A DNA stretch of 64,000 bases from Ostreococcus lucimarinus (Eukaryota): NCBI GenBank assembly GCA_000092065.1, contig CP000591.1; one strand, given 5' to 3'. The position numbers and the translations under genes were made by a program. Of the stretch, positions 1 to 31,973 are shown piece after piece (position 1 is the first letter of the stretch; every line of letters begins with the position of its first letter). The notes beneath the pieces were generated by a model, which saw only the letters and a program-made list of their open reading frames with translations, was not told the origin of the DNA and searched no databases.

Positions 1-3000
1 GCGGCGGCGATTGGTTCGAGCTCGGTGATCTTTGGTACCGCTTTGGCGCTGAAAGTGATTCCGAGGCCGATGATGCAAGTGTTGGCCATCTTGCTCGCGT
101 CGACGGTGGCGCCGCTGTTGGGCGTATACGTCGAAGAGTTGCGTTTGCACCGTACGTCGACGAGGCGTACGAGACTGATGATATTGTCGGACTGCTCGCT
201 TTACGGTTCGTGGGACGCCGTCGCCGGCACTGTGGCGTGGGCATGCGCCTTCAACCAGTCCGCTGACGCCTTCGGCCCCGCGCTAGCGCAGAGTTCATTT
301 GTCGCGTTTATCGTCGCCGCCGCGTGTCGTTGGATGCGAGCCATGTACGTATTGTACGTTATCGATCACTGGATCATTCAGACGGTCGCCGCGATGTCGC
401 AAGAGTTCACAGAGACGGTGTCGCGAGCGACCGTTGTCGTTATGGAAGAAGTTTCGCGAGCGCCGATCGTCGTTAAGGAAACAGTTTCGCGAGTTTCTGT
501 CGCGATTGCGGAAACGGTGACCCAAACGCCCGACGTGGTTTCGCACAATGACGAATCTCCGCAACCAGTCGCAGAGCCGAAGATGCACGAACGCTCGGAC
601 AATAACGAAGCCGCCGTCGCGAGCGTAAAAATGCGGGTTGCGAGAGAACCTCAGCCAGTTGTCATGGAGTCGGCGCCTTCATCCGACGCCGCGCCTGTAG
701 CAGGCGAAAGCGTGAGTGTCACTCAGCAGCCCGATGAACGGCGTATTGAGTACGCGCCTCCGTATACCGCGGTAATTCGTGAGCAGGATCCTCGTCCAGA
801 ACCGCCGCGTGTCGTATACGCGCCCGCGTTTGTCGTGGTGGAAGAGGCATCGACGTCGTCTTCTACGGAATCCGACGTCACTCAACCGCTCGAGTCAAAG
901 CGTCGCCGTCGACAGCGGAAGCGACAGTATCGCCGCCGTGAGTCGCTGGCGAAGAATACTATAGACATGAGCGAGATTGTGTCGAAAGAAGTTAACATAG
1001 CGCTGAACATGGGCGTTTCGATTGAGGCGGAGCTTCAGCGCATGTTGGATCGACGTCAATCGACGCTGAACGACATGAAAAACCAGCAAGCGAATCCAAT
1101 TTCTATCGCGCAAGTGGAAGCGGATATTGCCGCGCTGCGTGCTGAGCTGAGACGAGCCACGACATCACGCGAACAATTTCAACGAGCTCAAACGTCGTAT
1201 GAGAGCGATCTAGAGATGTGGATGGAATCGATACGCGCGGCGGCGGCGGTCTCGCGATTGGACTACGCAATCGATTCACTAAAAAACGCATCGGTCGCCG
1301 ACGACCCGCAGGTCAAGGAACTCATTGATCAAAGGGCTGTTTGGGGGTTGCGTTTGGTCAGCTCTCAAATATTTACGATTGTTGAATTGCAGGATTCACT
1401 TGACTCTGGGGAAGCACGTTCTTCCGCGCGCATAGCAGAATTACGAGGAGCTATAGAAAGTTTGGAGCTCAAATTGACTCGTTTGCAAGAAGAAAAGACG
1501 CAGAGCGTCGATAACCGTATTCTTTTGGAGGATCGTCTGCAGAAATTGAATCTTGAAATCGATTCTGTTCGGGAAAGAGAGCGCGTTGCGCAAGAAGACT
1601 GGCAAAGAGAGCGCCTGCGCCTGGAAGTTGAGCTCGAAGCTTCAGTCAAGGAACTTCAAACTGCCACGAGAACCGTCGACGACGCTCTCAAGGCGAAGTT
1701 AGAACTCCTTGCTAAGCTGCAGACCGCTCAAGATCAGAGCGACACTGATGCAGAGGCGATTCGGCGTCTCGAACATGAAACTGAAACTCTGCAAACGAAG
1801 CTCAAGTCCCTCACCGAGCAGCTATCTGTCGCAAATGCTAGTGTTGAACAAATCAATTCGCGTCGATTTGACTTAGAATCGCAACTGCGAGCAAAGGCAA
1901 CTGAGTTAGACTTGGCAAACGCCAATCGTGCCGATACTTCATTAGTTGAAGAGCTGAGGCGTCAAGTGAAGAATCTATCTACGGAGATCTGTTGGCTCAG
2001 AGATCAAAAATCGAGAGAAGGAAGCGAAGCAGAAGCAGTACTTCAAAAGCAACTCGCAGAGGCTCGTACGCAACTCGAAATCCAGCGAAATGAATTAGAA
2101 ATCGAAGCCAAGGCTGAAATTTCCGAATTGAAGCGATCCATGGATGTTATCCGCGAGGAGATGGAACGTCTAACGTCGGAGATGTCAGAGAAGACTGAAA
2201 AGAGTTTAGAGTATCAACGAATAGTTCAAGAGCGTCAAAAAGAGATTGAAAGTCTTACGAAAAACAAAGAGTTGGCCGCTCGCGCAATCGATGAGTCAAA
2301 GAAAAACTTGGCTCAGGCTCAGGAAGCGCTGGAGACGAAGCAAAAAGCACTAGATGACCGTGTTTCTCAGGTTGCAAGCTTATCTTTGGATCTTGCAGCG
2401 AGTGAGGAGAAAACGCTCACTCTTGAGCGCGAACTCTCAGCATCATGTCAACGCTCACAAGAGCTCGAAGAACTCATCTCCAGTCTTCGCTCGTACTCAG
2501 AATCACGCGATGCCTTGCTTGCTGACATAGATTTACTTCTCGGCAACGAAAACGACGAGCGCGAAGCGATGTTACGAGGCAGTAAGAACGCATCTGACCT
2601 CGTTGAGCGCATACAGAAACGTCTTCGAAGAGAAGTTGTCCTCGAGAAGAAGCTTGACCAAGCTCAGCTGCTCGAACAGGTAGGTCTCACAGTCGAAGAA
2701 TTGAAAACACGTGAAGCCGCATCACTTTGGTGGAAGGATCTAGTTCAAATTGGTTCTAAGGCTCTGGAAACGATTCAGAGCACCGCAGTGGATCTATCTA
2801 AGGGGACAGTCACGGCTTCATTGTTAGAGCGATCGATCAGTCTACGAGCGAAAGAGCTGCAGAATATCACCAGCGAACCGCAATACCAGAGATTGCAAAA
2901 AAGCTTCAATGATCTGAAGCGTCTTTCCGAAGCCGCAGAGCGAAAGTTGCAAGAAAAAGAGCGAAAGATAAAATCATTGAAGGCCGATAGCAAAGAGTCA

Positions 3001-6000
3001 GCTGCGGAATTGAAGGCGCTTACCTCAGAATTGGCCTCCGTGAAAGAAGATCTTAAATACATCAGAGATATTGCAAAAGAAGAGCGTGATGAACAGATTC
3101 AGCGCATAGAATCTCTCATGTTAGAGGTTGATTCATTCGAAAACGCCAAATTTGATGGTGAAGAGGCAGTACGCTTTAGAAACGAAGCAGCGAAGCTTCG
3201 AGGGATGAAAATTCGGTTGGAAGCTGAGCTCAAGTTGAGTCAAGATCTCGCAGAGACAGCGAGCAGCGAACTGGCTCGAGCTCGCGAAGAGCACGATGTC
3301 GTCATCACGCAGTTGAGTGAAGAAATAGCAGCTCTTGAACTCGACATCACAGTTAAATCTGAAGCGATCGAAAAGTTGGAGTCAAAGACGAATAATATTG
3401 AGGTCAAGTTGGGCTCCGATCTTGAGAGCGCGTTAGCAAAACTGAACACCACGCTCGAAGAACTCGATAAAAAGTCCACGGATTTTGCATCTCTTGAAAG
3501 CGCATCGGTTGAACAAAAGCGAAACTTTGAGAAGCACGTGGACGAGCTTGAAAAGCGCCTGGGTGCTTCCGAGGCTGAAGTGCAAAGATTGATACAAGAT
3601 AGAGATCTGGCTATTGAGGCCAAAGACAACGAAATGGTTTCGAAAATTCTTTCGCAGTCCGCTATCGTGTCCGATCTCGAGTCTGAGCGCGACGCGCTGC
3701 GTTCGCAGCTCGCCGACCTTTCGTCCGCTCGCGACTCTGAGCTGGCGTCTGTGCGCGCGGATCTTGAGTCCCAGCTTCGCGAGCGCGAGGAGGACATCGA
3801 GCGCGTGCGTTCTGAGCTCGACGAGTCCAAGGCGGCACTTGAGTCTGAGCGCGACGCGCTGCAGTCGGAGCTCGAGCGCGTGCTTTCTCAGGTGCCCGAG
3901 GTTGACGCGTCGCAGTCCGCTATCGTGTCCGATCTCGAGTCTGAGCGCGACGCGCTGCGTTCGCAGCTCGCCGACCTTTCGTCCGCTCGCGACTCTGAGT
4001 TGGCGTCTGTGCGCGCGGATCTTGAGTCCCAGCTTCGCGAGCGCGAGGAGGACATCGAGCGCGTGCGTTCTGAGCTCGACGAGTCCAAGGCGGCACTTGA
4101 GTCTGAGCGCGACGCGCTGCAGTCGGAGCTCGAGCGCGTGCTTTCTCAGGTGCCCGAGGTTGACGCGTCGCAGTCCGCTGCCGTGTCCGATCTCGAGTCT
4201 GAGCGCGACGCGCTGCGTTCGCAGCTCGCCGACCTTTCGTCCGCTCGCGACTCTGAGTTGGCGTCTGTGCGCGCGGATCTTGAGTCCCAGCTTCGCGAGC
4301 GCGAGGAGGACATCGAGCGCGTGCGTTCTGAGCTCGACGAGTCCAAGGCGGCACTTGAGTCTGAGCGCGACGCGCTGCAGTCGGAGCTCGAGCGCGTGCT
4401 TTCTCAGGTGCCCGAGGTTGACGCGTCGCAGTCCGCTATCGTGTCCGATCTCGAGTCTGAGCGCGACGCGCTGCGTTCGCAGCTCGCCGACCTTTCGTCC
4501 GCTCGCGACTCTGAGTTGGCGTCTGTGCGCGCGGATCTTGAGTCCCAGCTTCGCGAGCGCGAGGAGGACATCGAGCGCGTGCGTTCTGAGCTCGACGAGT
4601 CCAAGGCGGCACTTGAGTCTGAGCGCGACGCGCTGCAGTCGGAGCTCGAGCGCGTGCTTTCTCAGGTGCCCGAGGTTGACGCGTCGCAGTCCGCTGCCGT
4701 GTCCGATCTCGAGTCTGAGCGCGACGCGCTGCGTTCGCAGCTCGCCGACCTTTCGTCCGCTCGCGACTCTGAGTTGGCGTCTGTGCGCGCGGATCTTGAG
4801 TCCCAGCTTCGCGAGCGCGAGGAGGACATCGAGCGCGTGCGTTCTGAGCTCGACGAGTCCAAGGCGGCACTTGAGTCTGAGCGCGACGCGCTGCAGTCGG
4901 AGCTCGAGCGCGTGCTTTCTCAGGTGCCCGAGGTTGACGCGTCGCAGTCCGCTATCGTGTCCGATCTCGAGTCTGAGCGCGACGCGCTGCGTTCGCAGCT
5001 CGCCGACCTTTCGTCCGCTCGCGACTCTGAGTTGGCGTCTGTGCGCGCGGATCTTGAGTCCCAGCTTCGCGAGCGCGAGGAGGACATCGAGCGCGTGCGT
5101 TCTGAGCTCGACGAGTCCAAGGCGGCACTTGAGTCTGAGCGCGACGCGCTGCAGTCGGAGCTCGAGCGCGTGCTTTCTCAGGTGCCCGAGGTTGACGCGT
5201 CGCAGTCCGCTGCCGTGTCCGATCTCGAGTCTGAGCGCGACGCGCTGCGTTCGCAGCTCGCCGACCTTTCGTCCGCTCGCGACTCTGAGTTGGCGTCTGT
5301 GCGCGCGGATCTTGAGTCCCAGCTTCGCGAGCGCGAGGAGGACATCGAGCGCGTGCGTTCTGAGCTCGACGAGTCCAAGGCGGCACTTGAGTCTGAGCGC
5401 GACGCGCTGCAGTCGGAGCTCGAGCGCGTGCTTTCTCAGGTGCCCGAGGTTGACGCGTCGCAGTCCGCTGCCGTGTCCGATCTCGAGTCTGAGCGCGACG
5501 CGCTGCGTTCGCAGCTCGCCGACCTTTCGTCCGCTCGCGACTCTGAGTTGGCGTCTGTGCGCGCGGATCTTGAGTCCCAGCTTCGCGAGCGCGAGGAGGA
5601 CATCGAGCGCGTGCGTTCTGAGCTCGACGAGTCCAAGGCGGCACTTGAGTCTGAGCGCGACGCGCTGCAGTCGGAGCTCGAGCGCGTGCTTTCTCAGGTG
5701 CCCGAGGTTGACGCGTCGCAGTCCGCTGCCGTGTCCGATCTCGAGTCTGAGCGCGACGCGCTGCGTTCGCAGCTCGCCGACCTTTCGTCCGCTCGCGACT
5801 CTGAGTTGGCGTCTGTGCGCGCGGATCTTGAGTCCCAGCTTCGCGAGCGCGAGGAGGACATCGAGCGCGTGCGTTCTGAGCTCGACGAGTCCAAGGCGGC
5901 ACTTGAGTCTGAGCGCGACGCGCTGCAGTCGGAGCTCGAGCGCGTGCTTTCTCAGGTGCCCGAGGTTGACGCGTCGCAGTCCGCTGCCATGTCCGATCTC

Positions 6001-9000
6001 GAGTCTGAGCGCGACGCGCTGCGTTCGCAGCTCTCTGAGCTTCGTCAAATGTCCTCCGAATCCATCGCAGGACTCCAGCAGCAATTAGTCGCATTTTCGG
6101 CGGAGGCGGACTCTGCGGCTTCCTTGAGAAAAACAGTTAAAGAGTTGAAGGCAACTATCAGACAGCGCGAAAATTTGCTTTCTGAAACGGTGTTCGATCC
6201 GATGTTGAATGATGACTTGGACCGTATGAACGATGAGCTTGCATCGAAGAGTGCGGAACTAGATTCTGCACGGACGAAGTTGCAGTCGACTCTTAATAAG
6301 TTAAAAGAACGCGAGGAGCAGGCTGAATCTTCGCAAGCTGTTGCAAGTGCTGTCATAGATGAGATCCGCGCCGAGCTTTTGAATGCAAACGAAAAGTTGG
6401 CTGCTCGTGAGTCATACGCCAACGCTGTTGAGTTGGCGCTGCGGTCAGAACTCACAGAAAGAGAGAAAGAAATTGCGCTTTTGCGTGTCAAGGTAGCTAA
6501 AATTCTCGATGACAGCACGAACAAGCAGACAAGTCTCACCACTGCGCTCGATTCTGCGCAGTCTGAGATTGAGCGCCTCACTCGCGAGCTCGAGGATGTT
6601 GAGCAGAGCAAGCAAGTGGCCATGAAGGAGTCATTTGAGCGCAACGAATCGCAGATTGCGTCTCTGAACGCCGCGCACCGCGAGTTGGATCAGCGCCTGC
6701 GAGACGAGCTCGACGCGGCGCTCAAAGCGAAGGCAAGTCTTGAGAAGGAGCTCAGCGACCGCGCGGAATCCACCGCTGCTACCGAAACAGCGAAGCGCAA
6801 CGCCGAAGCACTGAGCGAAAGCTTGCAATCGCAGCTTGATGCACTGTCCACGCAGCGTGCTGAGCTCGAGCAGCGGCTGGTCAAGCGCGAGGAGGAGCTC
6901 GTCGCTGAGCTTGACGCAGCCAAGCATGAAGCCACAGCGCAGGCCGCACGTTTTGCACAACTTGGCGAGGCGGCCTCAGATCACGCACACGACGAGGTTG
7001 ATAAACTTAAGTCCGAAGTGGAACGACTCGAGTTTGAGCTCGGCGCTGTGAAAAACGAGCTGACAAGCGCGACGTCGACTGCGAAAGCGGACATTGCGAG
7101 GCTTACGGATGAACTTGCAAGCGCCAGCGCCGCGCGAGACGCCGTGGCTGAAACCGCTCATCCAGAAGAAGACGGGTCATCGGAGTCCGCATCGGCGTTC
7201 GAAGCCATGAGACGCGACATGACTCGTCTCGAGTCGGAGCTTGCCGCCGCTCTCGCGGAGCTTGCGGAGCTCGAATCGCCTCGCGAGTCAGAGTCCTCAG
7301 ATACTGAAGCTATTCGCGAGTTCACCACTGCGCTCGATTCTGCGCAGTCTGAGATTGAGCGCCTCACTCGCGAGCTCGAGGATGTTGAGCAGAGCAAGCA
7401 AGTGGCCATGAAGGAGTCATTTGAGCGCAACGAATCGCAGATTGCGTCTCTGAACGCCGCGCACCGCGAGTTGGATCAGCGCCTGCGAGACGAGCTCGAC
7501 GCGGCGCTCAAAGCGAAGGCAAGTCTTGAGGAGCGCAGCGACCGCGCGGAATCCACCGCTGCTACCGAAACAGCGAAGCGCAACGCCGAAGCACTGAGCG
7601 AAAGCTTGCAATCGCAGCTTGATGCACTGTCCACGCAGCGTGCTGAGCTCGAGCAGCGGCTAGTCAAGCGCGAGGAGGAGCTCGTCGCTGAGCTTGACGC
7701 AGCCAAGCATGAAGCCACAGCGCAGGCCGCACGTTTTGCACAACTTGGCGAGGCGGCCTCAGATCACGCACACGACGAGGTTGATAAACTTAAGTCCGAA
7801 GTGGAACGACTCGAGTTTGAGCTCGGCGCTGTGAAAAACGAGCTGACAAGCGCGACGTCGACTGCGAAAGCGGACATTGCGAGGCTTACGGATGAACTTG
7901 CAAGCGCCAGCGCCGCGCGAGACGCCGTGGCTGAAACCGCTCATCCAGAAGAAGACGGGTCATCGGAGTCCGCATCGGCGTTCGAAGCCATGAGACGCGA
8001 CATGACTCGTCTCGAGTCGGAGCTTGCCGCCGCTCTCGCGGAGCTTGCGGAGCTCGAATCGCCTCGCGAGTCAGAGTCCTCAGATACTGAAGCTATTCGC
8101 GAGTTCACCACTGCGCTCGATTCTGCGCAGTCTGAGATTGAGCGCCTCACTCGCGAGCTCGAGGATGTTGAGCAGAGCAAGCAAGTGGCCATGAAGGAGT
8201 CATTTGAGCGCAACGAATCGCAGATTGCGTCTCTGAACGCCGCGCACCGCGAGTTGGATCAGCGCCTGCGAGACGAGCTCGACGCGGCGCTCAAAGCGAA
8301 GGCAAGTCTTGAGAAGGAGCGCAGCGACCGCGCGGAATCCACCGCTGCTACCGAAACAGCGAAGCGCAACGCCGAAGCACTGAGCGAAAGCTTGCAATCG
8401 CAGCTTGATGCACTGTCCACGCAGCGTGCTGAGCTCGAGCAGCGGCTAGTCAAGCGCGAGGAGGAGCTCGTCGCTGAGCTTGACGCAGCCAAGCATGAAG
8501 CCACAGCGCAGGCCGCACGTTTTGCACAACTTGGCGAGGCGGCCTCAGATCACGCACACGACGAGGTTGATAAACTTAAGTCCGAAGTGGAACGACTCGA
8601 GTTTGAGCTCGGCGCTGTGAAAAACGAGCTGACAAGCGCGACGTCGACTGCGAAAGCGGACATTGCGAGGCTTACGGATGAACTTGCAAGCGCCAGCGCC
8701 GCGCGAGACGCCGTGGCTGAAACCGCTCATCCAGAAGAAGACGGGTCATCGGAGTCTGCATCGGCGTTCGAAGCCATGAGACGCGACATGACTCGTCTCG
8801 AGTCGGAGCTTGCCGCCGCTCTCGCGGAGCTTGCGGAGCTCGAATCGCCTCGCGAGTCAGAGTCCTCAGATACTGAAGCTATTCGCGAGTTCACCACTGC
8901 GCTCGATTCTGCGCAGTCTGAGATTGAGCGCCTCACTCGCGAGCTCGAGGATGTTGAGCAGAGCAAGCAAGTGGCCATGAAGGAGTCATTTGAGCGCAAC

Positions 9001-10632: not shown

Positions 10633-13600
10633 GTCATTGCGCCGTGAGCACGAAACAAAACTGAACGACATGCGTGAGTCTGCAACACAACAACGCGCGG
10701 ATCTTGAGTCCCAGCTTCGCGAGCGCGAGGAGGACATCGAGCGCGTGCGTTCTGAGCTCGACGAGTCCAAGGCGGCACTTGAGTCTGAGCGCGACGCGCT
10801 GCAGTCGGAGCTCGAGCGCGTGCTTTCTCAGGTGTCTGAGTCTGAGTCTCTGCAGTCCGCTGCCGTGTCCGATCTCGAGTCTGAGCGCGACGCGCTGCGT
10901 TCGCAGCTCGCCGACCTTTCGTCCGCTCGCGACTCTGAGTTGGCGTCTGTGCGCGCGGATCTTGAGTCCCAGCTTCGCGAGCGCGAGGAGGACATCGAGC
11001 GCGTGCGTTCTGAGCTCGACGAGTCCAAGGCGGCACTTGAGTCTGAGCGCGACGCGCTGCAGTCGGAGCTCGAGCGCGTGCTTTCTCAGGTGTCTGAGTC
11101 TGAGTCTCTGCAGTCCGCTGCCGTGTCCGATCTCGAGTCTGAGCGCGACGCGCTGCGTTCGCAGCTCGCCGACCTTTCGTCCGCTCGCGACTCTGAGTTG
11201 GCGTCTGTGCGCGCGGATCTTGAGTCCCAGCTTCGCGAGCGCGAGGAGGACATCGAGCGCGTGCGTTCTGAGCTCGACGAGTCCAAGGCGGCACTTGAGT
11301 CTGAGCGCGACGCGCTGCAGTCGGAGCTCGAGCGCGTGCTTTCTCAGGTGTCTGAGTCTGAGTCTCTGCAGTCCGCTGCCGTGTCCGATCTCGAGTCTGA
11401 GCGCGACGCGCTGCGTTCGCAGCTCGCCGACCTTTCGTCCGCTCGCGACTCTGAGTTGGCGTCTGTGCGCGCGGATCTTGAGTCCCAGCTTCGCGAGCGC
11501 GAGGAGGACATCGAGCGCGTGCGTTCTGAGCTCGACGAGTCCAAGGCGGCACTTGAGTCTGAGCGCGACGCGCTGCAGTCGGAGCTCGAGCGCGTGCTTT
11601 CTCAGGTGTCTGAGTCTGAGTCTCTGCAGTCCGCTGCCGTGTCCGATCTCGAGTCTGAGCGCGACGCGCTGCGTTCGCAGCTCGCCGACCTTTCGTCCGC
11701 TCGCGACTCTGAGTTGGCGTCTGTGCGCGCGGATCTTGAGTCCCAGCTTCGCGAGCGCGAGGACGACATCGAGCGCGTGCGTTCTGAGCTCGACGAGTCC
11801 AAGGCGGCACTTGAGTCTGAGCGCGACGCGCTGCAGTCGGAGCTCGAGCGCGTGCTTTCTCAGGTGCCCGAGGTTGACGCGTCGCAGTCCGCTGCCGTGT
11901 CCGATCTCGAGTCTGAGCGCGACGCGCTGCGTTCGCAGCTCGCCGACCTTTCGTCCGCTCGCGACTCTGAGTTGGCGTCTGTGCGCGCGGATCTTGAGTC
12001 CCAGCTTCGCGAGCGCGAGGAGGACATCGAGCGCGTGCGTTCTGAGCTCGACGAGTCCAAGGCGGCACTTGAGTCTGAGCGCGACGCGCTGCAGTCGGAG
12101 CTCGAGCGCGTGCTTTCTCAGGTGCCCGAGGTTGACGCGTCGCAGTCCGCTGCCGTGTCCGATCTCGAGTCTGAGCGCGACGCGCTGCGTTCGCAGCTCG
12201 CCGACCTTTCGTCCGCTCGCGACTCTGAGTTGGCGTCTGTGCGCGCGGATCTTGAGTCCCAGCTTCGCGAGCGCGAGGAGGACATCGAGCGCGTGCGTTC
12301 TGAGCTCGACGAGTCCAAGGCGGCACTTGAGTCTGAGCGCGACGCGCTGCAGTCGGAGCTCGAGCGCGTGCTTTCTCAGGTGCCCGAGGTTGACGCGTCG
12401 CAGTCCGCTGCCGTGTCCGATCTCGAGTCTGAGCGCGACGCGCTGCGTTCGCAGCTCGCCGACCTTTCGTCCGCTCGCGACTCTGAGTTGGCGTCTGTGC
12501 GCGCGGATCTTGAGTCCCAGCTTCGCGAGCGCGAGGAGGACATCGAGCGCGTGCGTTCTGAGCTCGACGAGTCCAAGGCGGCACTTGAGTCTGAGCGCGA
12601 CGCGCTGCAGTCGGAGCTCGAGCGCGTGCTTTCTCAGGTGCCCGAGGTTGACGCGTCGCAGTCCGCTGCCGTGTCCGATCTCGAGTCTGAGCGCGACGCG
12701 CTGCGTTCGCAGCTCGCCGACCTTTCGTCCGCTCGCGACTCTGAGTTGGCGTCTGTGCGCGCGGATCTTGAGTCCCAGCTTCGCGAGCGCGAGGAGGACA
12801 TCGAGCGCGTGCGTTCTGAGCTCGACGAGTCCAAGGCGGCACTTGAGTCTGAGCGCGACGCGCTGCAGTCGGAGCTCGAGCGCGTGCTGGGAGAGTTGAG
12901 TCAGTCGACTTCGGCGCTTCGGCGCGTTGAGGAGGATCTCAATGCCGCTTTAAGCGACCGCGATGAGTTCGAAGAAGAGAGTGATCGTTTGCGTCGGCGT
13001 CTACCACGACTTGAACGAGAGCATAACGAGTTGGAGGATGCAATGCGCTTGGAAATGGACGAATTGGCTTCAAAGCTTGCAGCGATGTCAAAAGCGCGCG
13101 ATGATCTCGAGAAGGACATGATTGAGCAGAGTGATGGTCTGTACAAGGCACTTGGCAGTAGCCGCGAGGATCTGCAGCGAGAACTAAACGAGGGCAAGAA
13201 GTTACTTGCTCAACGTGAGGCCGAGCTAAAGCGTTTAACTGCCGATTTTTCGTTGAAAGAGCACGCAATTGAGTCTGAGCGAGAAGCACTTGCGACCGAA
13301 TTGGATCGACTGATACACAAGGTGCCAGCCTTGGAGTTGACTACGGCTGAACTAGAGGCTGAACGCGCGGAGTTGCGCGAAAAGCTTGATGATTTGATAG
13401 CAAATCGTGATCAGCTGGCGGCCAATCTGCGAACCGAGAACGATTCGATGTCAGCAGAACTGTCCATGACTCGAGAAGCTCTTGATGAACAATTCAATGC
13501 CGTTACAACACAGCTCCTTGAAACCGATGAGATCATCGACAAGATGCGCAAGGATAACGAAGCTGCAAAGGAAGCAGCAGAGAACGACCGCTTAGCGCTA

Positions 13601-16600
13601 CAAGGTGAGCTTGAGCGCGTGGTGTCGGAATCAAATAAGCTGCGGGCAGCTCAAGCCACGGCCGAGTCTCTTCTACGCGCAGAGCGTGATGATCTCGAAG
13701 ACAAGGTCGAAAAACTTGAGTCATTGCGCCGTGAGCACGAAACAAAACTGAACGACATGCGTGAGTCTGCAACACAACAACGCGCGGATCTTGAGTCCCA
13801 GCTTCGCGAGCGCGAGGAGGACATCGAGCGCGTGCGTTCTGAGCTCGACGAGTCCAAGGCGGCACTTGAGTCTGAGCGCGACGCGCTGCAGTCGGAGCTC
13901 GAGCGCGTGCTTTCTCAGGTGTCTGAGTCTGAGTCTCTGCAGTCCGCTGCCGTGTCCGATCTCGAGTCTGAGCGCGACGCGCTGCGTTCGCAGCTCGCCG
14001 ACCTTTCGTCCGCTCGCGACTCTGAGTTGGCGTCTGTGCGCGCGGATCTTGAGTCCCAGCTTCGCGAGCGCGAGGAGGACATCGAGCGCGTGCGTTCTGA
14101 GCTCGACGAGTCCAAGGCGGCACTTGAGTCTGAGCGCGACGCGCTGCAGTCGGAGCTCGAGCGCGTGCTTTCTCAGGTGCCCGAGGTTGACGCGTCGCAG
14201 TCCGCTGCCGTGTCCGATCTCGAGTCTGAGCGCGACGCGCTGCGTTCGCAGCTCGCCGACCTTTCGTCCGCTCGCGACTCTGAGTTGGCGTCTGTGCGCG
14301 CGGATCTTGAGTCCCAGCTTCGCGAGCGCGAGGAGGACATCGAGCGCGTGCGTTCTGAGCTCGACGAGTCCAAGGCGGCACTTGAGTCTGAGCGCGACGC
14401 GCTGCAGTCGGAGCTCGAGCGCGTGCTGGGAGAGTTGAGTCAGTCGACTTCGGCGCTTCGGCGCGTTGAGGAGGATCTCAATGCCGCTTTAAGCGACCGC
14501 GATGAGTTCGAAGAAGAGAGTGATCGTTTGCGTCGGCGTCTACCACGACTTGAACGAGAGCATAACGAGTTGGAGGATGCAATGCGCTTGGAAATGGACG
14601 AATTGGCTTCAAAGCTTGCAGCGATGTCAAAAGCGCGCGATGATCTCGAGAAGGACATGATTGAGCAGAGTGATGGTCTGTACAAGGCACTTGGCAGTAG
14701 CCGCGAGGATCTGCAGCGAGAACTAAACGAGGGCAAGAAGTTACTTGCTCAACGTGAGGCCGAGCTAAAGCGTTTAACTGCCGATTTTTCGTTGAAAGAG
14801 CACGCACTTGAGTCTGAGCGAGAAGCACTTGCGACCGAATTGGATCGACTGATACACAAGGTGCCAGCCTTGGAGTTGACTGCGGCTGAACTAGAGGCTG
14901 AACGCGCGGAGTTGCGCGAAAAGCTTGATGATTTGATAGCAAATCGTGATCAGCTGGCGGCCAATCTGCGAACCGAGAACGATTCGATGTCAGCAGAACT
15001 GTCCATGACTCGAGAAGCTCTTGATGAACAATTCAATGCCGTTACAACACAGCTCCTTGAAACCGATGAGATCATCGACAAGATGCGCAAGGATAACGAA
15101 GCTGCAAAGGAAGCAGCAGAGAACGACCGCTTAGCGCTACAAGGTGAGCTTGAGCGCGTGGTGTCGGAATCAAATAAGCTGCGGGCAGCTCAAGCCACGG
15201 CCGAGTCTCTTCTACGCGCAGAGCGTGATGATCTCGAAGACAAGGTCGAAAAACTTGAGTCATTGCGCCGTGAGCACGAAACAAAACTGAACGACGTGCG
15301 TGAGTCTGCAACACAACAACGCGCGGATCTTGAGTCCCAGCTTCGCGAGCGCGAGGAGGACATCGAGCGCGTGCGTTCTGAGCTCGACGAGTCCAAGGCG
15401 GCACTTGAGTCTGAGCGCGACGCGCTGCAGTCGGAGCTCGAGCGCGTGCTTTCTCAGGTGTCTGAGTCTGAGTCTCTGCAGTCCGCTGCCGTGTCCGATC
15501 TCGAGTCTGAGCGCGACGCGCTGCGTTCGCAGCTCGCCGACCTTTCGTCCGCTCGCGACTCTGAGTTGGCGTCTGTGCGCGCGGATCTTGAGTCCCAGCT
15601 TCGCGAGCGCGAGGAGGACATCGAGCGCGTGCGTTCTGAGCTCGACGAGTCCAAGGCGGCACTTGAGTCTGAGCGCGACGCGCTGCAGTCGGAGCTCGAG
15701 CGCGTGCTTTCTCAGGTGTCTGAGTCTGAGTCTCTGCAGTCCGCTGCCGTGTCCGATCTCGAGTCTGAGCGCGACGCGCTGCGTTCGCAGCTCGCCGACC
15801 TTTCGTCCGCTCGCGACTCTGAGTTGGCGTCTGTGCGCGCGGATCTTGAGTCCCAGCTTCGCGAGCGCGAGGAGGACATCGAGCGCGTGCGTTCTGAGCT
15901 CGACGAGTCCAAGGCGGCACTTGAGTCTGAGCGCGACGCGCTGCAGTCGGAGCTCGAGCGCGTCATGGACGACGTTCTGAACGCAGAAGCGCTTGCGGAG
16001 CAAGCTGAGCTTATACGCTCGCAGATGCAGGCGGACATGGAGCAACTTGTTGAAGCGCGACAAAGTGTTGAGCAGCGTTTGCAGGATGTGGACAGTGCTC
16101 TTCAGATTTCTTTGAACAAGGTTGCCACGCTTGAGATTGAGCAAGAAAGATTGCGACTCGAACTCTCCGCTTCCGAGAAAGCCTTAGCCGAAAGTGAACG
16201 TGCTAGGTCAGAATCAGACGCAGAAATTCTGGCGCTTAGCGACGAGCTGTCGGACGCTTTGAATGCACGGTTACTTATTGAGCAACGACTTCGTGCGCGC
16301 GACGAGGAACTGGAGACCGCGCGCATCAAACAATCTGAATTAATTACGGAGAATTCAAAGCTCCGAGCTGAACTCATGGATGCCAAAGCAATGGCAGACG
16401 ATTACACTCGGCAGTTGTCTTCAGGGCTATTCGGCGATGAAAAGCGTGTCGAGGCTGGAATTCAACGATTTGACTCTTTCGAGGCGTCGGACACTGGTAT
16501 ATTTGCCACAGACGAAGCAGACGAAGCTTTCGTGACCGCCTGCAATATGGTGCAACGAATTGAAATCTTAGTTCGTCGACAAAAGCAAACGGGCGAAGAA

Positions 16601-17740
16601 TTAAAGCGACTAGATGACACTGGCGCGGCTGAATCAGACGATGCGCGCTTATTGCGCTCCGAGCTCGCCGCTATGGGTTCTCAACTCGACTCGTGCAGAG
16701 AAACTCTCGCTGCGTGCTCGCACGGTCTCAGCGTGCTTGAATCGCGCATGGCCGAAGAATTCGCGGCGATGGGCAAGTCGCCAATGTTCGCAGAAGGCAT
16801 GGACACTACTCGCAGTCGCGTACGCGATCTAGAAAAGTCACTCGCGGCGGCGAATGCCCAGTCCGACGTCACCTTCAAGAATCTGCAAATCGCGCTCGAC
16901 GCATCGACGATGGATGTCGGAAGGGATATTCCTGTCGAGTTTAAAATCCCGTTTCAATCAATCCCAGGACAACGTATTTTAGTCGTTGGTACTTGGTGCG
17001 ATTGGATCACTCAAAACGGCTTGCAGTTGACGTGGACCGAGGGGAACATATGGAAAGGCACGATGACACTGCACACAGGCTCAAATTACGAGTACAAGTA
17101 CGTCGTTGTGGAGGAAGTCCTCGGCGGAGTGCCTGGGGAAGCACCGCCGTACTTTCCGCCCTGGGGCACAACCGAGCCAAAGATTGAGCAGATGTTCGAC
17201 GGACGGGCGTACATGCTCGTCTGGCAGCCAGGAAACAACAAGGCGATGGCGCTCGACAACATTCACACGGATGGCGTCGCGCAAATTAAAGTTTCAGACG
17301 ACTGGATCGCCAATCCCAAGAAATCACCGATCACACTCTTCGCCGCGGATGGAGAAGTGCTTGAGATCGTCGGCTCGACGGCACTGCTCGGTGAAACGGT
17401 CGATCGCGCCGATCACGCCCTCGCCGAGGCTCGAAAGCAAGTCCAAATGATGGCCGACTTGGCGAGCGCCGCGTTGGCTGAAGTCGATACCCAGCTCGCG
17501 AGACGAATCGCCACGCAACTGGACGATATTCGTCACAAAGGAACTTTGTCTACCGACAGCGACGGTAAGCATCACCGTGGAACAAAGGCGCTTCCCTCGA
17601 GCGTTGAGGCCGGCTCGCCAAGGTCTAATCTTAACTGGATGAATATTGGATTCGGGTTGGAAGCCCAAGACGATGGCGAAGATTCAACATCGGCTTCGAC
17701 TGACGCGGAAGACGCCGGCGATGGCATCGACTACGCGTAA
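10619..17740 (+). CDS. Giant coiled-coil repeat protein, 3' portion. It contains more repeat-A arrays, two 1539-bp higher-order repeats, unique coiled-coil sequence and a C-terminal CBM20-like starch-binding domain. It is probably the same gene as 1..10632.
   Basis: The ORF is in frame 2 to a TAA at 17738-17740. Its first codons (gaaaaacttgagtcattgcgccgtgagcacgaa) are homologous to 13710-13745 and 15249-15284, which are internal to the repeat. The C-terminus has a CBM20-like motif. Convergent 3' ends follow. Confidence 0.8.
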   Translation: MEKLESLRREHETKLNDMRESATQQRADLESQLREREEDIERVRSELDESKAALESERDALQSELERVLSQVSESESLQSAAVSDLESERDALRSQLADLSSARDSELASVRADLESQLREREEDIERVRSELDESKAALESERDALQSELERVLSQVSESESLQSAAVSDLESERDALRSQLADLSSARDSELASVRADLESQLREREEDIERVRSELDESKAALESERDALQSELERVLSQVSESESLQSAAVSDLESERDALRSQLADLSSARDSELASVRADLESQLREREEDIERVRSELDESKAALESERDALQSELERVLSQVSESESLQSAAVSDLESERDALRSQLADLSSARDSELASVRADLESQLREREDDIERVRSELDESKAALESERDALQSELERVLSQVPEVDASQSAAVSDLESERDALRSQLADLSSARDSELASVRADLESQLREREEDIERVRSELDESKAALESERDALQSELERVLSQVPEVDASQSAAVSDLESERDALRSQLADLSSARDSELASVRADLESQLREREEDIERVRSELDESKAALESERDALQSELERVLSQVPEVDASQSAAVSDLESERDALRSQLADLSSARDSELASVRADLESQLREREEDIERVRSELDESKAALESERDALQSELERVLSQVPEVDASQSAAVSDLESERDALRSQLADLSSARDSELASVRADLESQLREREEDIERVRSELDESKAALESERDALQSELERVLGELSQSTSALRRVEEDLNAALSDRDEFEEESDRLRRRLPRLEREHNELEDAMRLEMDELASKLAAMSKARDDLEKDMIEQSDGLYKALGSSREDLQRELNEGKKLLAQREAELKRLTADFSLKEHAIESEREALATELDRLIHKVPALELTTAELEAERAELREKLDDLIANRDQLAANLRTENDSMSAELSMTREALDEQFNAVTTQLLETDEIIDKMRKDNEAAKEAAENDRLALQGELERVVSESNKLRAAQATAESLLRAERDDLEDKVEKLESLRREHETKLNDMRESATQQRADLESQLREREEDIERVRSELDESKAALESERDALQSELERVLSQVSESESLQSAAVSDLESERDALRSQLADLSSARDSELASVRADLESQLREREEDIERVRSELDESKAALESERDALQSELERVLSQVPEVDASQSAAVSDLESERDALRSQLADLSSARDSELASVRADLESQLREREEDIERVRSELDESKAALESERDALQSELERVLGELSQSTSALRRVEEDLNAALSDRDEFEEESDRLRRRLPRLEREHNELEDAMRLEMDELASKLAAMSKARDDLEKDMIEQSDGLYKALGSSREDLQRELNEGKKLLAQREAELKRLTADFSLKEHALESEREALATELDRLIHKVPALELTAAELEAERAELREKLDDLIANRDQLAANLRTENDSMSAELSMTREALDEQFNAVTTQLLETDEIIDKMRKDNEAAKEAAENDRLALQGELERVVSESNKLRAAQATAESLLRAERDDLEDKVEKLESLRREHETKLNDVRESATQQRADLESQLREREEDIERVRSELDESKAALESERDALQSELERVLSQVSESESLQSAAVSDLESERDALRSQLADLSSARDSELASVRADLESQLREREEDIERVRSELDESKAALESERDALQSELERVLSQVSESESLQSAAVSDLESERDALRSQLADLSSARDSELASVRADLESQLREREEDIERVRSELDESKAALESERDALQSELERVMDDVLNAEALAEQAELIRSQMQADMEQLVEARQSVEQRLQDVDSALQISLNKVATLEIEQERLRLELSASEKALAESERARSESDAEILALSDELSDALNARLLIEQRLRARDEELETARIKQSELITENSKLRAELMDAKAMADDYTRQLSSGLFGDEKRVEAGIQRFDSFEASDTGIFATDEADEAFVTACNMVQRIEILVRRQKQTGEELKRLDDTGAAESDDARLLRSELAAMGSQLDSCRETLAACSHGLSVLESRMAEEFAAMGKSPMFAEGMDTTRSRVRDLEKSLAAANAQSDVTFKNLQIALDASTMDVGRDIPVEFKIPFQSIPGQRILVVGTWCDWITQNGLQLTWTEGNIWKGTMTLHTGSNYEYKYVVVEEVLGGVPGEAPPYFPPWGTTEPKIEQMFDGRAYMLVWQPGNNKAMALDNIHTDGVAQIKVSDDWIANPKKSPITLFAADGEVLEIVGSTALLGETVDRADHALAEARKQVQMMADLASAALAEVDTQLARRIATQLDDIRHKGTLSTDSDGKHHRGTKALPSSVEAGSPRSNLNWMNIGFGLEAQDDGEDSTSASTDAEDAGDGIDYA
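10690..12886 (+). repeat. Second repeat-A array, about 8.5 copies of the 258-bp unit: four copies of a SQVSESESLQSAAVSD variant followed by four or five copies of the SQVPEVDASQSAAVSD variant
   Basis: The same 258-bp period is present. Variant-specific tgtctgagtctgagtctctgcag appears at 10833, 11091, 11349 and 11607. The gtgcccgaggttgacgcgtcgcag variant appears at 11865, 12123, 12381 and 12639. One copy has a gaggacgac (E->D) change at about 11761. Confidence 0.9.
12887..15963 (+). repeat. Two tandem copies of a 1539-bp (513-aa) higher-order coding repeat, here called repeat C. Each copy is about 900 bp of unique coiled-coil sequence plus 2.5 repeat-A units.
   Basis: ctgggagagttgagtcagtcgacttcggcgcttcggcgcgttgaggag occurs at 12887 and 14426, a spacing of 1539. 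The copies differ by only a few substitutions (T/A, I/L, M/V). A partial third copy (the 3' end of the unique part plus a repeat-A array) begins at 10620. Confidence 0.9.
16927..17250 (+). other. CBM20-like (CBM20/48-superfamily) starch- or glucan-binding domain at the C-terminus of the giant coiled-coil protein
   Basis: Translation reads IPVEFKIPFQSIPGQRILVVGTWCDWITQNGLQLTWTEGNIWKGTMTLHTGSNYEYKYVVVEE. It carries the conserved CBM20 pattern V.F.....GQ.v.vvG....W......L.W....W...l.l..g...EYKyv. Confidence 0.6.
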
Positions 17741-17820: not shown

Positions 17821-18552
17821 TCAAATCGCGCCCGATTCGCCGACGTGAAATTTCTTCGCCCCCAACTCCCTCGCCGCCACGCGCTGTTCCACGGCTCGCG
17901 CGTCACTGACGGGCGGTACCGCGCGCGCGTAATGTCGCATCGCGCGTCCAATATCACGCTCCTCTTCTTCCGCGTCGTCCCCCACCCCATAAAAACCCAC
18001 GAGCTCTAACAAACGATCCGGCTGCTTCGCCACCGCGTCTCTCGCCTCCGCCGCGCCGAGCGTCTCCTCCAACCCGCGCATCGCTTCTTCCAGCGCTCGC
18101 CCATCGCACAGCAGCAGTCCCGGTGCGAGCGTTATCTGCCGCCCTGAGATCCCCGCCACGCATCGTTTCACCATCAACACGCGCTTTACGAATTCGTCCT
18201 CGCGCAGCGCCAACAGCCTCGGCTCTCGCGCCGCGGACGCCGGCACGTCCAACCCGTGCGAGCCGCAATTTCCGTCGCCATCCACCGGGAACACGCGCAA
18301 CAGCGCGCGCACTTTCGATTCCAATCGCGCTGGATCGCGATACAGCGATTCGCGCGATGATTTCGTGACGATTTGTCGGCAGTGCGCGGCGCCCGTCCAA
18401 TTTCTCCAAAACTTTTCAACCGCGCGGTCGTTCGCGTCGGTGAACGCGCACTCGCCGTCGCCCGCGCTGCGCGCGCGCGCCGCGCGACTCGCCGCGCCCG
18501 AAGTCGACGTCGACGGCCCGCGCGACGGCGCGCGCGTGAAGTTTGCGCGCAT
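17821..18552 (-). CDS. Hypothetical protein (243 aa). It contains a VDGDGNC motif; any OTU-like cysteine protease relationship is speculative.
   Basis: The ATG at 18552 was verified (plus-strand cat at 18550-18552). The gene is convergent with the giant gene. Amino-acid composition looks like a real protein in the C-terminal two-thirds, but I recognise no confident homology. Confidence 0.35.
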   Translation of the reverse strand: MRANFTRAPSRGPSTSTSGAASRAARARSAGDGECAFTDANDRAVEKFWRNWTGAAHCRQIVTKSSRESLYRDPARLESKVRALLRVFPVDGDGNCGSHGLDVPASAAREPRLLALREDEFVKRVLMVKRCVAGISGRQITLAPGLLLCDGRALEEAMRGLEETLGAAEARDAVAKQPDRLLELVGFYGVGDDAEEEERDIGRAMRHYARAVPPVSDARAVEQRVAARELGAKKFHVGESGAI

Positions 18553-18578
18553 CTGAATGACGGCGTAACGTCTTCGCG

Positions 18579-19766
18579 ATGGCGCCGGTCGCGGTCGCCG
18601 CGAACGTTGAAATCGCGGCGCCGCTCGCGGTGGAAGACACGGCCACGCTTTGCGACCTCGTGCGCGGCGCGCTGTGCTTCTGGCGGTGCGAGAGGGATTA
18701 TTTCTTCGCGGAAGGGTCGAAGTGCGCGAGGGCGCGAGACGCGTGCGCGGCGGCGTGTCGCCTGCCGCCGGAATGGGTCACGCGAGCGCTCGGCACGACG
18801 CGAGAACGAGAAATCGCGAAGCACACGGACCCTTTGGAACGGAAAGAATATTTGGGGACGCTCACGGAGGAGGAGGCGCGGACGTTGAGGCGGAGACGGG
18901 CGGAGGCGGCGCGCTTCGTGAGACGAAGAGCGATGGCCGCGGCGCCGGAGAGACAGAGCATGACGAAGCGGGCGGGGGAACGACGGAGACGGGAGCGAGC
19001 GTGGACCTCGTCAAAGTTGAGAAAGGATGGGGACGACGCGTCGGTGAGCGCGAGCGATGAGTTCGGGAAGGCGGAGGCGCTCGAGGCCGAGCTAGCGGAG
19101 GCGAACGCTCGGCGGTATCGCCGCGCCTACGACGGCGCCGATGAATCGGGGTATTCGTCGCGATCGTCGTCGTATTACTCGGACGAATCGTCGTATTCGT
19201 CGTACACCGGGTCGTCGTATTCGTCGTACACCGGGTCGTCGTATTCGTCGTACGCCTCGGACGCAGACGCCGAGCGGGAGCGTCGGCGCGCGTTGGCGCT
19301 CGACGCAATGAAGCCCCCGAACGACGCCACGGCGATGACCGTCTCGCGCAAGGATGCGCTCGGCAAACCATTAATCGTCGGCAAGCACTTGGCGTTCGCC
19401 ACCGAAGGTTTACTCCCCGAAGGCTTGACGCGCTGGGAGGCGTACATCGCCGAAGCCGAACGCGCCGGCGAGCTTCGCGACGCCAAAATGCGTCGCCGCG
19501 CCGAGCGTCGCGATCGATCCCTCCACCGCGAGCTCGATGCTCTGAAACTCTACGCCGACAGGGTCAAGCTCAGCGAGCAAGACGTGCAAATCCGTCGTCA
19601 AGCGTTGATCGACGCGCACGACGCGCGCGTTCGCGAATCCGTCGAGCGCGAAGTCAAAATAGCCGCCCGCGCGCGTCGCAAGCGCAACGTCCTGCTCAAT
19701 CTCGACCACGACGCGCGCTCTAGATTATTAAAGCGCTGGGCTCTCCGCCCCAGCGCTCAGAAATAG
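18579..19766 (+). CDS. Hypothetical protein (395 aa) with an SSYSSYTG/SSYSSYAS low-complexity repeat and a C-terminal charged coiled-coil
   Basis: The ATG at 18579 was verified. Repeated tcgtcgta(t/c)tcgtcgtacaccgggtcg occurs around 19170-19260. No homology recognised. Confidence 0.4.
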   Translation: MAPVAVAANVEIAAPLAVEDTATLCDLVRGALCFWRCERDYFFAEGSKCARARDACAAACRLPPEWVTRALGTTREREIAKHTDPLERKEYLGTLTEEEARTLRRRRAEAARFVRRRAMAAAPERQSMTKRAGERRRRERAWTSSKLRKDGDDASVSASDEFGKAEALEAELAEANARRYRRAYDGADESGYSSRSSSYYSDESSYSSYTGSSYSSYTGSSYSSYASDADAERERRRALALDAMKPPNDATAMTVSRKDALGKPLIVGKHLAFATEGLLPEGLTRWEAYIAEAERAGELRDAKMRRRAERRDRSLHRELDALKLYADRVKLSEQDVQIRRQALIDAHDARVRESVEREVKIAARARRKRNVLLNLDHDARSRLLKRWALRPSAQK

Positions 19767-19879
19767 CACCGATTCAGAGTCGTGCCGCGCGTCCGGCGCG
19801 CTCGTTCGCGCGCCGTCGCCGCCTCGCCAGTCTCACACCGCGCCGCGCCGCTTCGCGTCGCCGCCGCCGCGCGCGCGTC

Positions 19880-20656
19880 ATGTCTCGCGCCGGACTCACG
19901 CCCGCCGCGCGCCGCGCGATGGACCGCGCGCTCGACGGCGCGCCCGACGCCGTCGAGCGCGTCGCGCAGAAACCGCCCGCGCCCGCGACGCGCCGCCGCG
20001 CGCGCGGTCGCTCGCTCGCGCGCGCCGTCCCGCTCGTCGCGTTCCTCGACGACCGACCGCGATTGAAACACTTCTCGCTCGGCTTCCTCGCGGGCGCGTG
20101 CGCGATGGCGGCGATCGCGATGGAGGAGGTGAAGAGGATGGTGGCGGCGCGCGACGACGAGCGGCGGCGCGAGCGAGACGCGAGACGACGCGCGAGGATT
20201 GAGAAAAAGGCGGTGAATAAATTGAACTCGGTGCCGATAATCGTGGAGATGAGCGATGAAGAGGCGGGCGACGGGATCGGGGGGGACGTCGGGACGAGGG
20301 ACGAAGAGCACAAGATGGCGCTGCTGGTGCGAGAGGACGTGGCGATGGGGGCGGGGAAGTTGGCGGCGCAGGCGGGACACGCGGCGGTTGGCGCGGCGAT
20401 GGCGACGCGGGATCGATCGCCGATGCTGATGGGAAGATGGGAGTGCGATGGGCAAAAGAAGGTGACGCTGGGGGTGAAGAATCTGAGGGTGATGAATGAA
20501 CTGTTGGGAGAGGCGAAGACGGCGCGGTTGACGACGTTTGTCGTGGAGGACGCCGGCCGCACGGAGGTGGAACCGGGCACGGTGACGGTCGCCGCCATCG
20601 GACCGGCGGCGGCGTCCGACATTGATAAAATCACGGGACACCTGCGTTTGTACTAG
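19880..20656 (+). CDS. PTH2: Peptidyl-tRNA hydrolase 2 (PTH2 family) with an N-terminal hydrophobic anchor
   Basis: The ATG at 19880 was verified. The C-terminal domain reads ALLVREDVAMGAGKLAAQAGHAAVGA ... VTVAAIGP ... KITGHLRLY, which matches the conserved PTH2 core (GK.AAQ..HA) and C-terminal KLY/RLY ending. The N-terminal segment FLAGACAMAAIAM is TM-like. Confidence 0.8.
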   Translation: MSRAGLTPAARRAMDRALDGAPDAVERVAQKPPAPATRRRARGRSLARAVPLVAFLDDRPRLKHFSLGFLAGACAMAAIAMEEVKRMVAARDDERRRERDARRRARIEKKAVNKLNSVPIIVEMSDEEAGDGIGGDVGTRDEEHKMALLVREDVAMGAGKLAAQAGHAAVGAAMATRDRSPMLMGRWECDGQKKVTLGVKNLRVMNELLGEAKTARLTTFVVEDAGRTEVEPGTVTVAAIGPAAASDIDKITGHLRLY

Positions 20657-20753
20657 CGTTTCGTCGATCGTTCCGGGACTAGATTATCATCAATGAGAAA
20701 TTCAATTATTGTTTTACAAATCTTTCGTCGTCGGACGGTCTTGTAAGTCTCGA

Positions 20754-22386: not shown

Positions 22387-22427
<41 letters not shown>

Positions 22428-31707: not shown

Positions 31708-31973
31708 CGCGCGTTCGCGCGTCGCGCCGTCGCTCCCGCGGGCGCTCGCGCGCGCATCGTCACCACGCGCGTCGTGCGCGCGGACATGGTCGATCGGTCG
31801 GCGCGTTCTGCGGGCGCGCGGCGGCGTCGCGCGCAACGAGTGGCGCGCGCTCGCGCGTCGCTCGATGGGGTTCGACGTGTGCGGAATACGACGTTTGTGA
31901 AATGTTTGGTTTTTTATGCGCAACGCGATATTTTTGAAACGCGACGCCGCGGCGGCGGCGGCGGAGGCGACGA

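Follow-up and report, generated by a model that had tools for sequence, protein, structure and literature searches.

How chlorophyte algae start, place and inherit their starch granules is an open question, and Ostreococcus, in which one granule is split between the daughters, is its classic case. A giant gene at the 5′ edge of a 64,000-nucleotide stretch of the Ostreococcus lucimarinus CCE9901 genome (contig CP000591.1; the whole stretch is called the window below) offers a concrete candidate. What does it encode, and what could its product do for starch? The gene encodes a protein of ~6,000 residues with a membrane anchor, a long helical rod and a starch-binding tip. Its best explanation, which we consider reasonably probable, is a plastid-membrane tether or scaffold that ties starch to the membrane.

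The initial annotation, made from the letters alone, had placed one gene at 1–17740, open at the 5′ window edge, in an alga of the Mamiellophyceae type. The source organism fits that lineage, and the frame is indeed open from base 1, where reading starts. On the + strand, frame 1 has no stop between base 1 and a TGA at 10630–10632 (3,543 codons; open reading frame (ORF) 1), and frame 2 is open from 10616 to a stop at 17738–17740 (2,374 codons; ORF2). The single gene stands, as argued below; as assembled, however, it consists of two ORFs with a frame break at 10621|10622. Summing ORF1 and ORF2 gives ~5,900 amino acids (aa), and ~170 more residues lie upstream of the window. The latter are known from a metagenome contig, L004, which agrees with the N-terminal part of the window in all 250 residues compared. 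On this contig the repeats have collapsed, and the whole giant gene is a single 2,421-aa ORF (P0049) that runs on upstream to an ATG. A further contig, L002, is an independent long-read assembly with 95–100% DNA identity to the window.

To find relatives, a profile of the C-terminal domain was searched against 1.84 billion representative proteins. This recovered P0141, a continuous ORF of 4,091 aa from a sister Ostreococcus-like species. Residues 9–3485 of ORF1 are collinear with P0141 207–3167, and residues 1529–2359 of ORF2 match P0141 3201–4081 with 41.6% identity (E = 1e-174). Another relative, P0148, is one ORF of 4,842 aa on contig L005 (4001–18529; 66–70% guanine plus cytosine). Its similarity covers the membrane-adjacent module (P0141 aa 383–562 versus P0148 aa 682–873, E = 1e-16) as well as the CBM20 end (46% identity). 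Because both ORFs are collinear with P0141 and the layout is kept as a single ORF in P0148, ORF1 and ORF2 are the two halves of one ancestral gene, and not the assembly chimera of unrelated genes against which the initial annotation had cautioned. PRP8, PTH2 and two small ORFs adjoin the giant gene in both O. lucimarinus and the P0141 locus. In the latter (L006 1–6648 versus window 17821–27746) this block is inverted and found upstream, separated from the giant gene by an ion-channel gene, and in O. lucimarinus it lies downstream, an arrangement that indicates a local inversion. The gene is divided as follows.

1–354 (+): C-terminal part of the membrane domain; Kyte–Doolittle scan and identity to L004/P0049.
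355–945 (+): Pro/Val/Ser-rich non-helical linker; translation, proline cluster and motifs also present in P0014/P0141.
946–1560 (+): conserved membrane-adjacent module and start of the rod; homology of P0141 and P0148, window translation.
1561–3651 (+): unique helical rod segment 1; no self-repeat matches, collinear with P0141.
3652–6046 (+): A array 1, 258-bp (86-aa) unit, 9.3 copies, ~99% identical; Tandem Repeats Finder, unit peptides and AlphaFold2.
6047–6531 (+): unique rod stretch from the end of A array 1 to the start of the B array; self-comparison.
6532–9197 (+): B array, ~786-bp (262-aa) unit, 3.4 copies, ~99% identical; self-BLAST.
9198–10143 (+): unique rod segment U2; single match to L002 1801–2850.
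10144–10621 (+): partial B copy with an abrupt end at the junction; self-comparison.
10621–10632 (+): frame-breaking junction 10621|10622 with the frame-1 TGA at 10630–10632; frame 2 open from 10616, junction lacking in L002.
10622–10693 (+): tail of a C-unit; self-comparison.
10694–12888 (+): A array 2, 8.5 copies, with variants 'SESES' and 'PEVDA'; Tandem Repeats Finder and unit peptides.
12889–15963 (+): two C-units of 1,539 bp each; Tandem Repeats Finder and self-comparison.
12889–13780 and 14428–15319 (+): unique-type segments of the C-units, each followed by 2.5 A units (13781–14427 and 15320–15963).
15964–16924 (+): unique C-terminal rod including a conserved pre-CBM20 module, 'ACNMVQRIEILVRRQKQ'; family alignment and P0141 match.
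16925–17305 (+): CBM20 with an aromatic-rich insertion of ~35 aa ('PPYFPPWG...'); Pfam PF00686, 1ac0 profile match, Foldseek and site-1 residues.
17306–17407 (+): family-specific post-CBM20 extension, 'NPKKSPITLFAADGEVLEIVGSTALLGETVDR'; invariant alignment columns and two extra beta-strands in the model.
17408–17740 (+): C-terminal helix, 'WMNIGFG' motif, acidic tail and stop at 17738–17740; translation, alignment and model.

The identification of the C-terminal domain as a CBM20 is sound. It scores 34.7 bits against Pfam CBM_20 (gathering cut-off 23.3; E = 1.5e-8), and the relatives P0011, P0144 and P0143 are also above the cut-off with 42.1, 30.9 and 26.6 bits. Scores of the CBM48 type fall below theirs (AMPK1_CBM, 22.0 against 26.8 bits in the O. 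lucimarinus domain; CBM_48, 16 against 22.4 in P0011), which bears out the CBM20-like domain first noticed by eye. Among PDB sequences, a profile built from seven family members best matches 1ac0, the starch-binding domain of Aspergillus niger glucoamylase (E = 1.9e-6), and it picks up the CBM20 of STBD1 as well. An AlphaFold2 model of the C-terminal part, using ten homologues, has a mean predicted local distance difference test (pLDDT) value of 59.8, with 65–87 in the beta core. In a Foldseek comparison with this model, CBM20 domains take all the top places (GPCPD1, STBD1, glucoamylases, beta-amylase and cyclodextrin glucanotransferases; target-normalised template modelling (TM) scores of 0.67–0.77), and the top PDB set (2z0b, 2vn4, 8x8k, 1cqy and 1kul) is matched at probability 1.0 with target-normalised TM-scores of 0.61–0.77.

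Binding site 1 of the CBM20 is intact, as W543, K578, W590 and N595 of glucoamylase align to W, K, W and N that are invariant in the family. At the positions of site 2, Y556 corresponds to W or Y, W563 to W and Y527 to Pro. The glucoamylase numbering and last 30 residues used here are those we take to be correct, and for the first ~78 residues the HMMER output served as a check. The conserved residues suggest that the domain binds starch in vivo. In the giant class, the aromatic-rich insertion stands before the W590 strand and may form an extra sugar- or partner-contact loop, in a region where the model has low confidence. Stretches there that fit the pattern [FYW]-P-x-[WY]-G are PPYFPPWG, PPYWPSWG, FFPEWG and HWPEYG (aa ~90–124 of 16850–17737). 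Behind the CBM20, an extension of ~35 aa ('NPKKSPITLFAADGEVLEIVGSTALLGETV') is common to all members and forms two strands in the model. The window protein agrees with its consensus, 'NPxxxPIxLxxxDGxVxExVGSTxLLxExV', in which P156, P160, L163, E172, V174–T177, L179 and L180 are invariant columns of the family alignment.

The rod comprises ~5,320 residues and is rich in A (13%), E (16.5%), L (13.6%), S (12.6%), R (9.8%) and D (8.1%), with 0.7% Pro and 1.0% Gly. Its hydrophobic periodicity at 3.5–3.6 residues exceeds that of shuffled sequence ~2.6-fold in power. Of the 17.7 kb, 61% consists of repeats with an identity of 95% or more. The A unit is present in ~22.7 copies spread over four arrays, 97–100% identical in DNA and nearly the same in peptide; there are ~4 copies of the B unit (the 3.4-copy array and the partial copy) and 2 of the C-unit. 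AlphaFold2 models 344 aa, covering the unique rod end and three A units, as helices at 2–163, 171–249 and 259–336 with a mean pLDDT of 84. The helix breaks coincide with 'QVPEVDASQ' linkers, which recur every 86 residues. The model fits a coiled-coil-type rod in which helices of ~78 residues (~11.6 nm) would be joined by Pro-containing hinges in the A arrays, and the helices presumably pair as dimeric coiled coils. A single-alpha-helix (E/K-rich) domain was considered for the rod and ruled out, the sequence being Leu/Ala-rich with a 3.5-residue hydrophobic period. A unique rod segment gave no matches among PDB sequences. Long ORFs of 741–883 aa inside the A arrays, at 3433–6084 (−), 3614–6088 (+), 10470–12842 (−) and 10674–12899 (+), are not genes; they exist because the tandem units happen to be stop-free in those frames.

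The near-identical repeats and the heptad coiled-coil rod described in the initial annotation are thus present in O. lucimarinus. As a property of the protein family, the repeats did not hold up, for the rod of P0141 is mostly unique sequence. Copy numbers vary between L002, L004 and the window, and contig L001, from another species with ~55% C-terminal identity and a protein of at least 4,000 residues, has different repeat periods (153, 162 and 315 bp). Because of these differences and the mostly unique P0141 rod, the near-identical repeats must have arisen recently in the lineage of O. lucimarinus. The rod of this giant protein has been rebuilt by very recent tandem amplification, which explains why the locus is wrong in short-read and even finished assemblies.

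Turning to the N-terminus, a Kyte–Doolittle scan (19 residues, ≥1.6) finds three hydrophobic segments in ORF1, at aa 2–20, 24–42 and 91–118, in line with the two to three transmembrane-like segments first proposed. The whole protein has 4–6, the others lying upstream. As seen via P0049, the upstream ~170 aa hold a presequence, an acidic patch and two further hydrophobic segments. The P0049 frame reaches an ATG that opens 'MERGARTRANDARWTRGTIGARGARERRVVAVRV...', a stretch of 62 residues that includes 15 Arg, 9 Ala and 9 Thr and is poor in acidic residues; the N-terminus of the full-length protein reads 'MERGARTRANDARW...'. The order is therefore an Arg/Thr/Ala/Gly-rich presequence, an acidic patch and then the hydrophobic segments, and such a presequence with hydrophobic segments is found in three independent family members (the P0049 locus, P0014/P0141 and P0011). 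By its composition the presequence resembles an organellar transit peptide, and plastid targeting is predicted. The linker that follows the membrane domain, where the prolines of ORF1 concentrate, carries the conserved motif 'RVVYAPAF' and a basic patch, 'KRRRRQRKRQYRRRE'. The membrane-adjacent module contains the motif 'DQRAVWGLRLVSSQI', and the marker of the giant class in this module, 'AVWGLRLVS(S/A)QI', is found in the window translation. Pfam gave nothing significant in the membrane domain of O. lucimarinus or P0141, and a search with the N-terminal part of the O. lucimarinus protein returned P0014 as its sole match.

About 22 clusters (50% identity) match the C-terminal profile at E < 1e-30, many over all 165 positions. 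The giant class includes several Ostreococcus-like species, P0010, P0143/P0144 and P0148. A class of ~860–1,014 aa (P0011, P0149 and P0155), here called the ~900-aa class, combines a presequence with one or more clear hydrophobic anchor segments, a rod of ~450–600 aa and a CBM20 without the insertion. All relatives found come from Mamiellophyceae-like metagenome assemblies, which places the same layout across picoplankton that are abundant in the ocean. Cluster look-ups gave no family member named in NCBI or UniProt, although the reference annotation may still hold a model, and the C-terminus and the first ~500 window-encoded residues match unnamed metagenome proteins only. No description of the family was found in the searchable literature on Ostreococcus or Mamiellophyceae with CBM20 or coiled coils, as the initial annotation had supposed. 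In P0148, aa ~100–600 form a polytopic domain like that of NCS1 nucleobase permeases (PF02133, 35.1 bits; gathering cut-off 23.5) in the same ORF as the rod and CBM20. The Ostreococcus membrane domain shows no similarity to this anchor. PLUTO, the sole NCS1 member of Arabidopsis, is in the plastid inner membrane (PMC3951388), and by analogy the NCS1-like anchor of P0148 gives a hint that the anchor may sit in the envelope.

These features suggest how the protein might work. The transit-peptide-like presequence would route it to the chloroplast, the 4–6 hydrophobic helices would anchor it in the inner envelope or thylakoid membrane, and the helical, hinged rod of ~5,300 residues would project into the stroma. 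At the far end of the rod, the CBM20 with its intact site 1 would hold the single starch granule or malto-oligosaccharide primers. Such a membrane link could set the site of starch deposition and keep the granule placed for partition at plastid division. One non-enzymatic polypeptide would then join the roles that in Arabidopsis belong to MFP1 (anchor and coiled coil) and PTST2 (coiled coil and CBM). The plastid location, the identity of the membrane and the role in granule positioning or partition are all predicted from the layout. A more specific version, possible but doubtful, would make the protein the physical link of a dedicated granule-inheritance apparatus, in which the anchor sits in the inner envelope, the CBM20 reaches the granule, and granule position or fission is coupled to plastid division. 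Ostreococcus tauri does split its single granule at division (10.1101/2024.10.03.616402). If this version were true, each daughter would receive a starch primer, chlorophytes would have a replacement for the streptophyte SS4/PTST2/MFP1/MRC machinery, and its rod would be one that evolves by rapid lineage-specific repeat amplification.

Several points weigh against a plastid-membrane tether or scaffold. Its support consists of sequence and models; plastid targeting was judged from composition; the C-terminal model is of moderate confidence; and the CBM20 retains its site 2 only in part, with Pro at Y527. The ~900-aa class exists besides the giant one. The length varies from 4,091 to ~6,000 aa among species, and even near-identical assemblies disagree in copy number; length is therefore not tightly constrained, and the precise 'ruler' role raised in the initial annotation is unlikely. 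As one continuous extended coiled coil, the rod would measure ~790 nm. The Ostreococcus cell is roughly 1 µm, and the rod must therefore bend, fold back or wrap. Finally, the break at 10621|10622 would, if taken at face value, part the anchor and rod from the CBM20 end.

At this junction, frames 1 and 2 are joined with a shift of one base. To its left lies the partial B repeat, and to its right the last 72 bp of a C-unit followed by an A array; the two sides share only 'TG'. Contig L002 matches the window as far as the partial B copy and continues with extra B sequence and a unique, in-frame helical linker of 610 bp (203 aa), then 13 A units, a single C-unit and another 3.5 A units, and the junction is absent from it. 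The linker was not found anywhere in the window; its peptide gave no matches in a protein search and only generic coiled-coil similarity to P0141. In the metagenome contigs of the Joint Genome Institute, a 53-mer across the junction and a 29-mer from the L002 linker each gave 0 exact matches, two negatives from which nothing follows, as assembly probably drops short unique stretches that have repeats on either side. A frame-restoring intron was rejected, as no GT was seen by eye within the 43 bases that precede the stop and the L002 frame stays open here; the ORF break of L001 (9505–9902) sits in an error-ridden repeat stretch and is uninformative on introns. Judging from these sequences, the break most likely reflects either a mis-join or collapse in the repeat region or a deletion that only the cultured strain carries. 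Could the gene itself be broken in CCE9901? A real microhomology-mediated deletion would leave a truncated anchor-plus-rod protein without the CBM20, as a recent pseudogene or as one of two products. The frame break is present in the finished reference, the breakpoint between unrelated repeat families is sharp, and the L002 linker is missing from the whole window, all as such a deletion would have it. Both halves are nevertheless wholly stop-free over 3,543 and 2,374 codons, near-identical L002 reads through, and the repeats are prone to collapse and mis-joins, with L001, L002 and L004 each arranged differently. We therefore regard a broken gene as quite unlikely.

The excess of rod length also bears on the geometry. 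Instead of a radial tether, the hinged helices could wrap or coat the granule, or form a stromal mesh, with the anchor fixing one end only. Such a scaffold or cage would control granule shape, growth or enzyme access. An extended rod that far exceeds plastid dimensions, regular Pro-containing hinges every 86 aa, and a variable length that makes exact reach uncritical would all suit it. Each chain, however, has one CBM20 and no other starch-binding module in the rod parts scanned, and the conserved membrane domain and adjoining module argue that anchoring matters; we consider a cage unlikely, although a scaffold that coats the granule stays close to the tether in kind. The membrane might also not be that of the plastid. 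A golgin- or endoplasmic reticulum (ER)-type endomembrane tether, with its CBM20 on a cytosolic or lumenal glycan or in an STBD1-like autophagy of glucan, would account for the N-terminal anchor and C-terminal CBM20, which mirror ER-resident STBD1 (PMC5358331), for the STBD1 CBM20 among the top Foldseek matches, and for weak Pfam matches to Golgin_A5. The Golgin match, though, reaches 16.9 bits against a threshold of 31.7, and the N-termini of three family members are presequence-like, being Arg/Ala/Thr-rich and nearly acid-free and then followed by an acidic patch. The starch of green algae is plastidial, which counts against such a tether too. One relative, moreover, has the NCS1-like anchor, of a family found in the plastid inner membrane in Arabidopsis (PMC3951388). 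An endomembrane tether is thus very improbable, and a plastid-membrane tether or scaffold is the reading we carry forward.

The genes next to the giant gene were also identified. A 395-aa ORF that adjoins it (18579–19763) is identical to XP_001420240.1 of O. lucimarinus CCE9901. Uninterrupted frames encode PRP8 (20754–27746, −; 2,329 aa), an SMC/RAD50-like ATPase (37451–41965, −; 1,503 aa), a MyTH4-FERM kinesin (52059–56204, +; 1,381 aa) and a hemerythrin/CHY/RING zinc-finger protein (56249–59392, −), the last of which we take to be BTS/HRZ-like by its domain set. An alpha-glucan (starch) phosphorylase of 1,067 aa is encoded at 28771–31974 (−), 11 kb downstream of the giant CBM20 gene; it matches PF00343 with 947.6 bits in two stretches, which suggests a large insertion. 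From the gene counts we assume for this compact genome, the chance of such proximity is presumably ~8%, and a functional linkage with the phosphorylase was set aside, the proximity being judged likely chance.

How does the protein relate to systems already described? In Arabidopsis, the sites where granules start are set by MFP1, a coiled-coil protein of the plastid that is bound to a membrane, and PTST2 joins a coiled coil to a C-terminal carbohydrate-binding module with affinity for malto-oligosaccharides (PMC13167743; 10.1101/2024.10.03.616402). MFP1, on the thylakoid, recruits PTST2, whose module is a CBM48, and PTST2 in turn delivers malto-oligosaccharides to SS4. SS4, PTST2/3, MFP1 and MRC are reported absent from Chlorophyta, and MFP1 is reported from seed plants only (10.1101/2024.10.03.616402). 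The algal protein has both halves, anchor and coiled coil with CBM, in one polypeptide that is 6–10 times longer. Likened to MFP1 by description, it has an anchor, a rod and a presequence that resembles a transit peptide in composition, the CBM being extra; from the PTST family (PTST1/2/3), it differs in having a CBM20 instead of the CBM48 that marks PTST proteins, and its heptad-patterned rod precedes the CBM in a protein whose plastid location is predicted. Outside the CBM20, no homology to known systems was detected beyond general coiled-coil character, SAGA1/2, BSG1 and MFP1 not having been compared directly.

The initial annotation had set the protein apart from known plant coiled-coil and CBM proteins. 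That it is undescribed still stands, but analogues in SAGA1/SAGA2, BSG1 and STBD1 had been overlooked. SAGA1 and SAGA2, reported in Volvocales only, localise starch to the pyrenoid; their CBM20 binds starch and maltoheptaose, and they have several Rubisco-binding motifs (PMC13167743). A protein with a CBM20 and a coiled coil is thus able to localise starch (PMC13167743). BSG1 of Chlamydomonas also has a CBM20 and a coiled coil, and its deletion mutant is described, in work cited in 10.1101/2024.10.03.616402, as having abnormal starch granules. The combination of a CBM20 with a long helical region in SAGA1/SAGA2 and BSG1 is as in the algal protein, a shared architecture for which homology is not claimed. 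By description, the algal protein differs from the SAGA proteins in its C-terminal CBM20 and membrane domain. We know of no membrane anchor in SAGA proteins; SAGA1 has ~1,600 aa, and Ostreococcus has no pyrenoid. Several W[R/K]xx[L/I/V/A] motifs occur in SAGA, compared with one in ORF1, none in ORF2 and none in P0141; the one in ORF1, the sole match in the O. lucimarinus protein, is 'WWKDLV' at aa 911 (about nt 2731–2748). In P0148, the rod is broken by three copies of 'EGF(K/R)(W/L)K(N/E)(L/M)VS(R/K)L(R/K)LD(K/R)NE' (aa ~1750, 1838 and 1933), two of which conform to W[RK]xx[LIVA], the pattern of Rubisco binding in Chlamydomonas. These copies and 'WWKDLV' may be partner-binding motifs.

In Metazoa, STBD1 ties glycogen to membranes with an N-terminal transmembrane anchor and a C-terminal CBM20 (PMC5358331, PMC11406230). 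The layout of anchor and CBM20 is as in the algal protein, and the CBM20 structure of STBD1, 8x8k, ranks with the top fold matches at a target-normalised TM-score of 0.77. The likeness is architectural only, with 17% identity in the CBM20 and no similarity elsewhere. STBD1 is a glycophagy receptor of ~360 aa that acts in the ER and autophagy and has no coiled-coil rod. The A. niger glucoamylase CBM20 (1AC0/1KUL) is joined to an enzyme, whereas the algal domain has its insertion, its extension and Pro for Y527. Taken together, the sequence comparisons suggest that the algal protein falls within the known class of non-enzymatic coiled-coil and CBM proteins that organise starch, but forms a separate family.

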